Origin: a virus
Taxonomy: Duplodnaviria > Heunggongvirae > Uroviricota > Caudoviricetes
Reading direction: 5' to 3' (one strand)
Length of the DNA: 4,579 nucleotides
Virus record (IMG/VR): IMGVR_UViG_2698536450_000001
Shown piece by piece: positions 922-4,579 of this stretch. Each line of letters begins with the position of its first letter. Within the stretch, counting starts at the first letter, position 1. A model generated the notes under the pieces. That model was given only the letters and a program-made list of their open reading frames with translations, did not search any database and had not been told where the DNA came from. A program made the position numbers and the translations under genes.

Positions 922-1950
922 TTATTTCACCTGTACCACCACAAACTCATCCGGATCCGGCAGCACCATCAGCGGCGCGGACTGCGTCATGGTGAATTCA
1001 CAGGACGGATCGCCCACGGTCAGCCAGTGTTTCGGGTAACGGGAAGAAGCCACCACTCCTTCAGACAACGCCTGTGCATCCTTAATGGCTCCATAGCAAC
1101 GAATCCCCTCTGCTGCCGTATTCCCCAGCACCAGCGTGCCCTCCGGCAGATAACGTTTTTCGGTACCGTCCTCTGCCACATAAGACGTTTTCGCTACCAC
1201 AATGGCCAGATCGCCGTAATACCCCTTGAAGGATACCACTGCGCCCAGATCTTTCACTGCCGTTTCGAGTTGTGAATTTGAACCGCGACGGGTATCCATT
1301 TTTTCGCGGAAAAGCTTAAAGCCATTCAGCAGACGCCAGACGGTACCGTCCATAATGGCAATATTCACAAGACCACTGGCCTGATCACAGAAAAGGTCGA
1401 TATCATATGTCGGGTCGAACGTGTCACGATCCTGTTTTGACCACTCCTTACCGCTACCTTGTATGATGTTATTCTTCGTCGATCGGCCAAAATCGACTTC
1501 AATTTTCTCGAACTGGTCTCCTTCCATCGTATATTTGCCATACAGCACGGCATTCACCGCCTGCATTTCTTCCACCTGCACAATAGCGTGCTCTTCCTGT
1601 TTGAGGTTATCAGTGATGATACGCAGACGACGGTAGGCCGGGTCGTTCAGCTGAGCCGGATCTTCACCGGGAAGGCGCTCAACCGCCTGCTGGTAATTAA
1701 ATTCGTGTTTCGGCTTGACGTAGCCCGGACGCAACACGCGGGTTTCACCACCACGATGGCGCAGCACTTTTCCTTCAACGATCGGGGAGACATAGGCCGC
1801 CACCGGCGTTTTTCCGGTAATTTTGTCCAGCATCACCTCTTCGGTGTGGAAATTCACCGTACGGCGGAAAAACAGCTCCAGAAATAGCGCACGGAATTTC
1901 ACTTTTTGTTCGGTATAACCGAGTAACTGGCGGGTCGTAAACAATCCCAT
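922..1950 (-). CDS. E: Major capsid protein (lambda gpE-like), 342 aa
   Basis: ORF track 922..1950 minus. The translation matches lambda gpE along its length by recall (…TTRQLLG.TEQK.KF…LFF…YVSPIV.G.V…RGG…PGYVKPKHE…DPAYRR.RII…EEMQAV.AVL.GKYTM.G…TRRGSNS.LETAVKDLG…GDPS.EFTM.QSAPLM.L.DPDEFV.VQ). ATG at 1950-1948 is preceded by an AAGGA motif. The length is close to lambda gpE (341 aa). Confidence 0.95.
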   Translation of the reverse strand: MGLFTTRQLLGYTEQKVKFRALFLELFFRRTVNFHTEEVMLDKITGKTPVAAYVSPIVEGKVLRHRGGETRVLRPGYVKPKHEFNYQQAVERLPGEDPAQLNDPAYRRLRIITDNLKQEEHAIVQVEEMQAVNAVLYGKYTMEGDQFEKIEVDFGRSTKNNIIQGSGKEWSKQDRDTFDPTYDIDLFCDQASGLVNIAIMDGTVWRLLNGFKLFREKMDTRRGSNSQLETAVKDLGAVVSFKGYYGDLAIVVAKTSYVAEDGTEKRYLPEGTLVLGNTAAEGIRCYGAIKDAQALSEGVVASSRYPKHWLTVGDPSCEFTMTQSAPLMVLPDPDEFVVVQVK

Positions 1951-1978
1951 AAATCAGTTCCTTTCATTCAGAAATCAG

Positions 1979-2391: not shown

Positions 2392-3207
2392 TCATGGCAT
2401 GGCCATGAGCATTTTCACGTCCGCATCACCGTCTGCTGACGTCTGTGACACGCCACCCCGCACCGCTGCCGGTGAATGATTCGCCATGAAATGTTCAAAC
2501 AGGGCGGTTGTGGATGCAGAGACCGGTTCGGCCTTACCTGATCCCGCAGCCAGCACAGCCCGGGCGTTCTCCACGGTCATTCCCGGGCAGGCAGCCAGTT
2601 TTTCAGCCTGCGCTTCTGCCCCTTTTGCCTCATCCAGGGCCATGATCTGATCACGAAGTGAGGGCCCGGCATCCGCCAGTGGTGCAGCCGCCAGGATCGG
2701 GCGGGCTTTTTCCACCGTCATCTCCGGCATCGCCGCCAGCGTTGCCGCCAGTTGTTCACGACCGTTCGCTTCTTCACACGCCATAATGCGATCGGCTTCA
2801 CTCTGCGCGGATGCCACCGGCTGCTGCGGTGCCGCCGCGGCCAGAATCGCCCGGGCCTGTTCAACGCTCATGCCCTGTTGCCCTGCCAGCATCGTGGCAA
2901 GCTGTTCACGTCCTTTCGCTTCCTGACACGTCAGGATCCCCATCACTCGCTGGTTCTCCTGCACTGCGGCTTCCGTTGCAGTTAATTGCGGCATAGTGCC
3001 TCCTCTGACATTACTGTTCAGCGCCGTGGCCATCACACTGATGGCATCCGACGCATTGATTAATTCATCCGCCAGCCCGGCCTCAATGCCGGACTGACCT
3101 TCAAAAACGGCGGCCTCTGTTCCCGTGACGGCATCAACAGACAGACCGGTAAACATCGCCACTTTTTCGGCAAACATCCGGCGCGCCGCATCAATGCGCT
3201 GCTGCAT
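2392..3207 (-). CDS. Nu3: Putative nested in-frame scaffolding protein (Nu3-like), translated from an internal start in the C frame; start position uncertain
   Basis: In lambda, Nu3 is the C-terminal about 200 codons of the C frame, translated from an internal start. The candidate internal ATGs here are at 3207-3205 (DMQQRIDAARR, with GAGG about 11 nt upstream), 3177-3175 and 3156-3154. The C-terminal part is Ala/Gln/Glu-rich and repetitive, as expected for a scaffold. Which start is used, if any, cannot be decided from sequence. Confidence 0.3.
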   Translation of the reverse strand: MQQRIDAARRMFAEKVAMFTGLSVDAVTGTEAAVFEGQSGIEAGLADELINASDAISVMATALNSNVRGGTMPQLTATEAAVQENQRVMGILTCQEAKGREQLATMLAGQQGMSVEQARAILAAAAPQQPVASAQSEADRIMACEEANGREQLAATLAAMPEMTVEKARPILAAAPLADAGPSLRDQIMALDEAKGAEAQAEKLAACPGMTVENARAVLAAGSGKAEPVSASTTALFEHFMANHSPAAVRGGVSQTSADGDADVKMLMAMP

Positions 3208-3897
3208 GTCCTGGCGAACCTCTGCCGGTAAGGCTTCAAACTGATTGCCATCCACCTTGTGCGTCCCTGAGTAAATCAGCGTGATATCCACACCGGCCTG
3301 CGCCAGATGACCGGCATAGCTGACATGGCTCATCATCACGCCAATGGAGCCGATACGGGATGTCTGGGTAACCAGCCGTCGGGAGCAGGCCGACGCCAGC
3401 AGCATGGCTGCAGAACAGGCCGTGTCATTGCACAGTGCCCAGACCGGCTTCTGCTGACGGAGGCGGTAAATCATGTCAGCGCAGTCAAACGCGCCGGCGG
3501 CCTGCCCGCCCGGACTGTCAATGTCCAGCAGTACGCCCCGCACCTGGCTATCCGCCATTGCCTGCTGAAGACAGGCGACAATACCGTCATAGCCTGTCAT
3601 TCCGGAAAATGGCCGCATACCCCCCAGCCGGTGCACCAGCGTGCCGGTCACCGGCAGTACAGCAATACCGTTCACCACCCTGTAAACACGGGCCGGTCGT
3701 TTACCTCCGGCCATGTACTCGTCCGTTTCAGCCAGCATTCCGGGAGCATCAAACTGTACCTGCTGTTGTGGTACCGAAAGACTTGCTGCCCCCATCTCGC
3801 GCCCGAGCGCGCAAAAGAAAACCCGCGCATAGGCGGGCTCCAGAAGCAGCGGTTCATTGAATGCTGCGGCAATAATGTGTGAAAGATTACGTCTCAC
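2392..3897 (-). CDS. C: Prohead protease / scaffold fusion protein (lambda gpC-like, S49/ClpP-fold peptidase domain with C-terminal Nu3-like scaffold domain), 501 aa, GTG start
   Basis: ORF track 2392..3897 minus. The N-terminus RRNLSHIIAAAFNEPLLLEPAYARVFFCAL matches the lambda gpC N-terminus by recall (RNLPHIASMAFNEPLMLEPAYARVFFCAL). Conserved protease-region blocks are present (NGIAVLPV.GTLV, GMTGY.GI, GAFDCAD.I, KPVWAL.ND..CSA..LLAS...RRLVTQT.R.GSIGVMM.H, ITLIYSG.HKVDGN). The start codon is GTG at 3897-3895 (plus-strand cac), preceded by AGGAGA at a 9-nt spacing; an in-frame stop lies upstream at 3936-3934. Confidence 0.9.
   Translation of the reverse strand: MRRNLSHIIAAAFNEPLLLEPAYARVFFCALGREMGAASLSVPQQQVQFDAPGMLAETDEYMAGGKRPARVYRVVNGIAVLPVTGTLVHRLGGMRPFSGMTGYDGIVACLQQAMADSQVRGVLLDIDSPGGQAAGAFDCADMIYRLRQQKPVWALCNDTACSAAMLLASACSRRLVTQTSRIGSIGVMMSHVSYAGHLAQAGVDITLIYSGTHKVDGNQFEALPAEVRQDMQQRIDAARRMFAEKVAMFTGLSVDAVTGTEAAVFEGQSGIEAGLADELINASDAISVMATALNSNVRGGTMPQLTATEAAVQENQRVMGILTCQEAKGREQLATMLAGQQGMSVEQARAILAAAAPQQPVASAQSEADRIMACEEANGREQLAATLAAMPEMTVEKARPILAAAPLADAGPSLRDQIMALDEAKGAEAQAEKLAACPGMTVENARAVLAAGSGKAEPVSASTTALFEHFMANHSPAAVRGGVSQTSADGDADVKMLMAMP
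2542..2952 (-). repeat. Three tandem in-frame copies of a ~35-50 aa motif (about 140-150 nt period) inside the C-terminal scaffold region of C/Nu3
   Basis: Protein residues about 316-452 contain ILTCQEAKGREQLATMLAGQQGMSVEQARAILAAAAP / IMACEEANGREQLAATLAAMPEMTVEKARPILAAAP / IMALDEAKGAEAQAEKLAACPGMTVENARAVLAAGSG. The repeat is visible at DNA level, for example plus strand around 2562-2590, 2700-2729 and 2851-2882 (cgggc.t.ttc.ac.gtcat..cc), and around 2610-2660, 2740-2800 and 2885-2945. Confidence 0.7.
3265..3852. repeat. Direct repeat copy 1 (inside intact C); 588 bp, about 99.5% identical to 3992..4579
   Basis: Base-by-base comparison of 3265-3852 with 3992-4579 at a constant offset of 727 bp. 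I find only 3 mismatches, in the motifs gacaatAccgtc/gacaatGccgtc, cgcatAcccccc/cgcatCcccccc and caccaccctg/caccacccgg, and no indels. Confidence 0.9.
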
Positions 3898-3966: not shown

Positions 3967-3991
3967 CCGGACGTGAGAGTCCGGCTTTTTA
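3967..3991 (+). terminator. Terminator-like hairpin plus T-tract oriented for plus-strand (antisense) transcription, inside the C-prime / C junction
   Basis: ccggac-gtgaga-gtccgg (6-bp stem, 6-nt loop) at 3967-3984, followed by cttttta (3985-3991) on the plus strand. On the minus strand it is preceded by an A-run rather than followed by a U-run, so it would act as an intrinsic terminator only on the plus strand. Confidence 0.3.
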
Positions 3992-4579
3992 CCCTGAGTA
4001 AATCAGCGTGATATCCACACCGGCCTGCGCCAGATGACCGGCATAGCTGACATGGCTCATCATCACGCCAATGGAGCCGATACGGGATGTCTGGGTAACC
4101 AGCCGTCGGGAGCAGGCCGACGCCAGCAGCATGGCTGCAGAACAGGCCGTGTCATTGCACAGTGCCCAGACCGGCTTCTGCTGACGGAGGCGGTAAATCA
4201 TGTCAGCGCAGTCAAACGCGCCGGCGGCCTGCCCGCCCGGACTGTCAATGTCCAGCAGTACGCCCCGCACCTGGCTATCCGCCATTGCCTGCTGAAGACA
4301 GGCGACAATGCCGTCATAGCCTGTCATTCCGGAAAATGGCCGCATCCCCCCCAGCCGGTGCACCAGCGTGCCGGTCACCGGCAGTACAGCAATACCGTTC
4401 ACCACCCGGTAAACACGGGCCGGTCGTTTACCTCCGGCCATGTACTCGTCCGTTTCAGCCAGCATTCCGGGAGCATCAAACTGTACCTGCTGTTGTGGTA
4501 CCGAAAGACTTGCTGCCCCCATCTCGCGCCCGAGCGCGCAAAAGAAAACCCGCGCATAGGCGGGCTCCAGAAGCAGCGG
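3989..4579 (-). pseudogene. Truncated duplicate of C (C-prime): encodes residues corresponding to about 16-211 of the protease domain, then stops at the duplication breakpoint; its N-terminus and start codon lie beyond the window end
   Basis: ORF track 3989..4522 minus has a translation identical to residues 35-211 of the intact C product, and the frame stays open to the window end. The reading frame ends ...DITLIYSG then TAA (3991-3989), whereas intact C continues THKVDGN.... The stop codon is formed by junction bases immediately outside the repeat. Confidence 0.7.
3992..4579. repeat. Direct repeat copy 2 (upstream partial copy of the C 5' region); extends to the window edge and probably beyond
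   Basis: Same alignment as for copy 1. Homology starts exactly at 3992 (ccctgagtaaatcagc...); the bases just before it (3988-3991 ttta versus 3261-3264 gcgt) differ. Confidence 0.9.

Follow-up and report, generated by a model that had tools for sequence, protein, structure and literature searches.

The 501-aa head protease/scaffold protein encoded in the 4,579-nt stretch of viral DNA analyzed here (the window) contains three tandem units of about 41-42 aa each, spanning residues 315-453 (window 2539-2955, minus strand). Each is a copy of the conserved Nu3 module I..C.EAKGRE..A..LA..PGMTVE.A..ILAAAP, and together the three conserved modules build the part of the scaffold that is common to the protease and to a nested scaffold protein. 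Judged by its sequence, the feature is the known threefold Tri-box repeat of the phage-21-type head-protease/scaffold gene (gp5, with the nested gp6). An initial annotation of the window had delimited the array at 2542-2952, which deviates by no more than 3 nt at either end.

Unit 1 (residues 315-356; 2830-2955), unit 2 (residues 365-406; 2680-2805), and unit 3 (residues 412-453; 2539-2664), all on the minus strand, match the module HMM at 4.7e-26, 8.5e-26, and 3.5e-25, respectively. Smith-Waterman scores between the units are 86-105, compared with 25.5-27.7 +/- ~5 for shuffled sequences (z = 11.5-16.3); the null comprised 2,000 composition-preserving shuffles with a maximum score of at most 56. 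Shuffles and HMM matches alike confirm the three consecutive copies proposed in the initial annotation. They also dispose of a concern raised there, namely that the repeat could be a low-complexity artefact with no real internal homology, a reading to which the composition of gp6 (23% alanine) lends some appeal. No shuffle comes near the observed scores, and the profile recognizes every unit at ~1e-25 along with 1,590 homologous modules in other proteins, so the alanine content is not the cause of the repeat. The artefact reading is already refuted, and its probability is practically nil. The repeat is visible in the protein only, as neither a DNA direct-repeat search nor TRF, both run on the window, reported the array. 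Codon-aligned unit cores share 60-70% of their nucleotides, and about half of the residues that are identical between units use different codons. Copies that differ this much in DNA and escape DNA repeat finders point to an old duplication.

The repeat has been on record for phage 21. GenBank entry M81255.1 ('Bacteriophage 21 head gene operon') places three repeat_region features within gene 6, named 'Tri1 box', 'Tri box', and 'Tri3 box' and described as 'function unknown; putative'. The M81255.1 locus and the window are offset by +334, which maps the boxes to 2824-2927, 2677-2787, and 2533-2646, overlapping units 1, 2, and 3, respectively. The source paper for these boxes is presumably that of Smith & Feiss (1993, Gene 126:1). 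The triple repeat is not only already known but also among the commonest E. coli prophage sequences: the 603-nt gp6 region is colinear and full-length in 1,865 of 5,426 complete E. coli genomes (about a third), with up to five copies in one genome. A few relatives look like decayed or rearranged prophages. They include a 182-aa 'phage portal protein' entry that contains units 2-3 (P0032), a protein in which parts of the unit region are joined to an unrelated N-terminus (P0043), and one E. coli genome (H223) in which only 25% of the gp6 region is left, beside the portal gene. A second phage 21 record, OL657228.1 (2022), puts two 'CII binding site' matches (ttgynnnnnnttgy) at approximately 2742-2755 and 2976-2989 of the window, on the plus strand and antisense to gene C, one in unit 2 and the other just upstream of unit 1; both are pattern-only.

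All genes of the window lie on the minus strand and form a phage-21-type head operon, the DNA being 93-96% identical to coliphage 21 and its relatives. The gene 5/C homologue (2392-3897) encodes the 501-aa protein, an S49 prohead protease with a C-terminal scaffold domain. It is accompanied downstream by a D-type decoration protein (2008-2355; PF02924), an E-type major capsid protein (922-1950; PF03864), FI (502-918), and FII (156-509), and the 3' end of the portal gene lies upstream. The FI open reading frame (138 aa, GTG start) exceeds the phage 21 annotation (375 nt, start MATKEENQ), and its upstream extension is probably spurious. In the protease, Pfam Peptidase_S49 (PF01343) matches residues 146-293 (3019-3462, minus strand; 1e-34), and PHROG 53, 'head maturation protease', matches across residues 1-501 (2.7e-228). 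Ser162 pairs in alignment with Ser166 of lambda gpC, which is reportedly the catalytic serine (Medina et al. 2010). Relative to phage 21 gp5, 12 of the 501 residues are changed, and an identical protein was found on 57 blocks of public E. coli assemblies; at six loci that encode it, an intact lambda-type portal gene lies upstream.

The window contains a direct duplication with a 727-nt period (3265-3852 and 3992-4579, junction 3991/3992) whose copies are identical at 585 of 588 positions, with mismatches at 3583, 3619, and 3681. It yields a second, upstream partial gene C (codons ~16-211; ORF 3989-4522, ending in TAA) fused to the final ~31 portal codons, and it reaches the end of the window. 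The duplication is absent from phage 21 and from the six loci encoding the identical gpC, and its junction occurs in 0 of the 5,426 complete E. coli genomes. Most probably, either two prophage alleles were assembled into a chimera or the rearrangement is private to this sequence. Separately, the 254-kb record of Aeromonas phage AP1 (MT713136.1) includes 245 unannotated nucleotides that match window 1707-1951, the 5' end of the coat gene, at 96.7% identity and look like contamination or misassembly in that record.

From the sequence and the phage 21 annotation, the scaffold gene gp6, the Nu3 analogue, is predicted to be nested in frame and to have its own translation start, extending from Met302 to Pro501 (200 aa; 2392-2994, minus strand). 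A Shine-Dalgarno sequence, GAGGAGG (2999-3005, minus strand), can be read 4 nt upstream of the gp6 ATG (2992-2994). Both phage 21 records have a corresponding coding sequence, called gene 6 in M81255.1 and 'scaffolding protein' in OL657228.1, and each marks a ribosome-binding site where the window has GAGGAGG; many database gene calls begin at Met302. All three units lie inside gp6, in agreement with the earlier placement of the repeat in the region common to protease and scaffold. They are followed by a C-terminal tail (residues 454-501; 2395-2538, minus strand) that is single-copy and not duplicated, with F..FM and a terminal LLMxMP as conserved anchors. Residues F166, M170, and P200 of gp6 are near-invariant in the gp6 alignment, and phages of Burkholderia, Proteus, Xylella, and Vibrio have a comparable 'F/L..(A/L)M' motif after the unit.

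Beyond phage 21 and its closest relatives, S49 prohead protease/scaffold proteins share the unit as a conserved module, usually in a single copy. In lambda gpC (439 aa) the same HMM finds a single unit (1.2e-26), at residues 358-399, so the length and the single clear copy given for lambda in the initial annotation are both correct. The protein studied here is indeed some 60 residues longer (501 versus 439 aa), but the excess of 62 residues is not simply that of two added units, because the linker before the unit is ~32 residues longer in lambda (where it is Ser/Thr/Ala-rich) and the lambda tail is shorter. When a profile built from 24 diverse units was run on 1.84 billion cluster representatives, 1,590 proteins matched at E <= 0.001. 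An S49 domain is present in 56 of the best 150 of these 1,590 matches, a sample skewed to multi-copy proteins since scores add; even so, 53 of the 56 have one unit, two have two units, and one has three. In tblastn searches the unit occurs in 222 sequenced-phage records, in more than one place only in ~18, which are phage-21-type. These copy counts come from the cluster-representative search and from tblastn against phages, since a protein homologue search with gp6 yielded almost exclusively contig-end fragments. Three copies in lambda and most relatives would have made the array ancestral, as the initial annotation had pointed out; lambda has one and so do most relatives, which makes three copies the derived state here.

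The module also reaches distant phages, such as Burkholderia AH2, Xylella Sano, Proteus PM87, and Vibrio HY01, each of which has one unit and the full W-portal-protease-D-E cassette; in Sano, a nested scaffold gene is annotated as well. Pfam gave no match over the unit, even at E <= 10, the best Pfam entry for gp6 being DUF7178 (E 0.061; 13.7 bits against a cut-off of 27). An NCBIfam search with gp6 returned no match, and no sequence relative covering the unit was found in the PDB. The unit is absent from the S49 protease-scaffolds of Felixounavirus, Barbavirus, and Saclayvirus (448-468 aa), which have charged, coiled-coil-like C-termini in its place, a replacement implying that the scaffold domain of this protease family has been swapped at least once. 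The protease genes of these genera have the same arrangement beside the coat gene, and an E-type coat (PF03864) is annotated in Barbavirus. 

Two simple ideas about the module were tried and rejected. One made it an obligate partner of E-type coats; in Barbavirus such a coat adjoins a protease-scaffold that has no unit, and the unit-free protease-scaffolds of Felixounavirus and Saclayvirus, with their same gene arrangement, undercut the idea further. The other took the near-constant length of gp6 (200 aa) and Nu3 (201 aa) for a 'ruler'; gp6 is 137 aa in phi80-type phages, and the nested scaffold of Sano is 142 aa.

Clustering of the units groups every first unit with the single unit of lambda. 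For units 2 and 3 of the window, the nearest neighbors are the correspondingly numbered units of Salmonella homologues, with 80% identity between the window unit 2 and a Salmonella unit 2. On this evidence, unit 1 is the ancestral copy and the positional orthologue of the lambda unit. Since units 2 and 3 pair with Salmonella units 2 and 3, the triplication is older than that split, and units 2 and 3 can be traced to an old in-frame duplication that preceded the separation of the E. coli phage-21-type and Salmonella Gifsy-type head modules. The initial annotation had likewise suggested an expansion by in-frame tandem duplication.

The module has expanded independently in several lineages, to as many as four copies. 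A gpC homologue on an E. coli contig of GCA_032727965.1 (P0025) has four units with an exact 46-residue period, which share 74-91% identity in protein and 71-80% in DNA, and the coat protein paired with them is 82% identical to that of the window. This contig (1-6042) carries lambda-type head genes (D, E, FI, FII) followed by GPW_gp25 and Baseplate_J, and by its gene content the locus is a mosaic of a lambda-type head and a myovirus (contractile) tail. Two units each are found in P0140 and in the pair P0102/P0091, and these units are most alike within their own lineage. In rare cases, a nearly identical E. coli sequence has only two units or a shortened unit 2 (P0013, P0019, P0022, P0008/P0009); among them, P0022 is an in-register hybrid of units 1 and 2, the pattern expected of unequal recombination.

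Comparison with the Salmonella prophage Gifsy-1 suggests what has been preserved. Identity is 76%, 76%, and 62% for the three units and 72% for the protease domain, as against 25-40% for the linkers and 26% for the tail. Values of pN are 0.15-0.25 for the units and 0.18 for the protease, with pS at 0.52-0.78, saturated or nearly so (unit 2, pN 0.20 and pS 0.78; unit 3, pN 0.25 and pS 0.52). Low pN combined with near-saturated pS means that each unit is conserved as protein, and by this measure all three are kept by purifying selection on the protein. The same figures bear on the proposal that the Tri boxes act as DNA or RNA elements, such as repeated binding sites or structured RNA, and not as protein modules. 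GenBank does list the boxes as DNA repeat_regions of unknown function, and two pattern-only CII matches fall in the region, on the antisense strand. Nonetheless, the copies are only 60-70% identical in DNA and go unseen by DNA repeat finders, their conservation is at the amino-acid level (pS 0.52-0.78), and Rfam and promoter/terminator scans of the repeat region returned nothing relevant, with no Rfam match and no promoter-like site. The divergence at synonymous sites effectively refutes a DNA-level role, which is left as an extremely improbable explanation.

Conservation also weighs against the view that the expansion is neutral or redundant, with the extra units as passengers of unequal recombination whose number has no effect on assembly. 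Lambda and phi80-type phages manage with one unit, there are nearly identical E. coli variants that have only two units or in which unit 2 is cut short (including the hybrid P0022), and the four-unit scaffold stands alongside a coat 82% identical to that of the window. Yet the conservation of the units matches that of the protease domain even as the linkers drift, E. coli and Salmonella lineages alike have retained three units despite saturated synonymous sites, and the length of the gp6 region is invariant in the 1,865 genomes; the short variants, moreover, may reflect defective prophages or misassembly at repeats. Neutrality is accordingly regarded as quite unlikely.

Structure prediction is consistent with modular units. 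In an AlphaFold2 model of gp6 (22-sequence alignment), the units reach pLDDT 74-82 and the linkers, which are Pro/Ala/Gln-rich and poorly conserved, 51-65, with a pTM of 0.28; confident helical units separated by low-confidence linkers suggest independent beads on a flexible string. A single-unit model (24-sequence alignment; pLDDT 86.5) places helices at unit residues 3-9, 17-24, and 31-40 and puts the invariant EAKGRE at the junction of helices 1 and 2, so that the unit is modeled as what is probably an autonomously folding small three-helix bundle. Foldseek with the whole gp6 model gave a best E of 4.2 and is uninformative because the units are flexibly linked. With the single unit, the top matches in BFVD (TM 0.81-0.86, 22-32% identity) are all S49 prohead proteases, one each from a Salmonella phage, a cyanophage, and an uncultured siphovirus, which fits a family-specific module.

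The coat-binding domain of P22 gp8 is a basic two-helix element, present once and located at the extreme C-terminus. The units have charges of +1, -3, and -2, which makes them neutral to acidic, and they lie upstream of the tail instead of at the C-terminus; they are not basic two-helix hairpins of the P22 type. Among the matches listed, none links them to the P22 domain by sequence or by fold. The coat-binding helix-turn-helix role proposed for the units in the initial annotation thus lacks specific structural support, the model giving three helices and no specific resemblance to the P22 coat-binding domain. As a whole, the interpretation offered there is partly supported.

The favored mechanism, with an even chance of being correct, is that the Tri-box modules are multivalent binding beads of the scaffold, with the inner face of the coat shell as their likeliest partner. 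Each unit would fold alone as a three-helix bundle, strung like a bead between Pro/Ala/Gln-rich linkers, and would be a module through which the internal scaffold binds another protein. Up to three equivalent contacts could then be made by each gp6 chain or gp5 protease tail, most likely on the interior of the gp7 (E-type) coat shell. Such multivalency would raise avidity and cross-link neighboring coat subunits during procapsid assembly, and the units would bring the protease inside the shell. Once assembly is over, cleavage of the scaffold by the S49 protease would produce fragments that leave the shell; from lambda biology, this part of the scaffold is expected to be proteolysed and missing from mature heads.

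The coat shell is favored as the partner because lambda Nu3 and E interact in a two-hybrid assay, in which no region was mapped (PMC3224144), and because valency towards a 415-subunit lattice would be selectable. The W-portal-protease-D-E cassette shared by distant unit-bearing phages was also counted for this explanation. Against a coat partner stand the neutral to acidic charge of the units, their position upstream of a conserved C-terminal tail, and the existence of other S49 protease-scaffolds that have an E-type coat and no unit. Conservation of the unit across phages with diverged coats could point to a conserved partner, whether the scaffold itself, the portal, or the protease. No assigned partner for the module was found in the literature open to search. 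Lambda builds the same T=7 shell with one unit, and the combination of one-unit lambda, a four-unit scaffold with an 82%-identical coat, and two-unit variants implies that the coat does not strictly require three.

A possible, though clearly less probable, arrangement is that the units are self-association, portal-docking, or protease-docking modules and that the single-copy tail binds the coat. Added units would then raise homotypic valency and favor a scaffold network, leaving coat valency as it is. The tail, with its near-invariant F166, M170, and P200, is never duplicated and has a similar counterpart after the unit in distant phages. Conservation is much stronger in the unit than in the tail, which is what a self partner or a conserved partner would produce. 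In the scaffolds of P22, phi29, SPP1, and 80alpha, the coat-binding element is at the extreme C-terminus. Nu3-Nu3, Nu3-C, and Nu3-B interactions have been published for lambda (PMC3224144). On the other hand, the AlphaFold2 model of gp6 displays no packing of unit against unit (pTM 0.28), a monomer model being unable to show intermolecular contacts, and the Nu3-E interaction exists, albeit with its region unmapped.

A broader proposal, rather unlikely on present evidence, is that module copy number is an evolvable dial of scaffold valency with each copy under purifying selection. It would involve at least three to four independent expansions, to three units in the phage-21/Gifsy type, four in the E. 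coli myovirus-tailed prophage, and two in two further lineages. If this were true, coat or scaffold contacts per chain would be adaptively tuned, and phage 21 and lambda, which form viable hybrids, would constitute a natural test of valency, procapsid nucleation, and stoichiometry. As a discovery the repeat matters little, having been in GenBank since the early 1990s as part of a very common prophage sequence. Its interest lies in the ~41-residue module, which is the most conserved part of lambda-family scaffolds and lacks a curated family or a solved structure, and in the natural one-, two-, three-, and four-copy versions around very similar coats, an allelic series for questions of partner and valency.

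Among known systems, coliphage 21 has the same gene (gp5/gp6), with the same three repeats identically placed and a nested scaffold gene that likewise has its own ribosome-binding site. There is no essential difference from the window, which represents an E. coli prophage allele and has the extra 727-nt partial duplication upstream that phage 21 lacks. Gifsy-1 STM2605, a gpC homologue of 498 aa, has three units at positionally orthologous places within the same cassette; its units are 62-76% identical and its linkers and tail 25-40% identical to those of the window, and its C-terminal extension differs. Lambda gpC/gpNu3 (NC_001416; C 4418-5737, nu3 5132-5737) shares the S49 protease, the C-terminal scaffold domain, the nested in-frame scaffold gene, and the head cassette, with its residues 358-399 orthologous to unit 1. 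It differs in having one unit and not three, and in the start of Nu3 at residue 239, within the protease region, compared with residue 302 for gp6.

More remote parallels exist for the gene arrangement and for the module. In the herpesvirus UL26/UL26.5 pair, the protease and an abundant scaffold share a C-terminal region through an in-frame nested gene, and the shared region directs the protease into the procapsid. The nested protease-scaffold arrangement is alike, whereas the protease family and the scaffold sequence are unrelated, and we know of no such repeat in UL26/UL26.5. The C-terminal helix-turn-helix of P22 gp8 is also a small helical module of a transient internal scaffold; the module described here, in contrast, is predicted to be three-helix and is neutral to acidic, internal, and threefold. 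Generic three-helix-bundle binding domains, such as protein A/affibody, RuvA domain III, and UBA/CUE, are also among the closest known systems.
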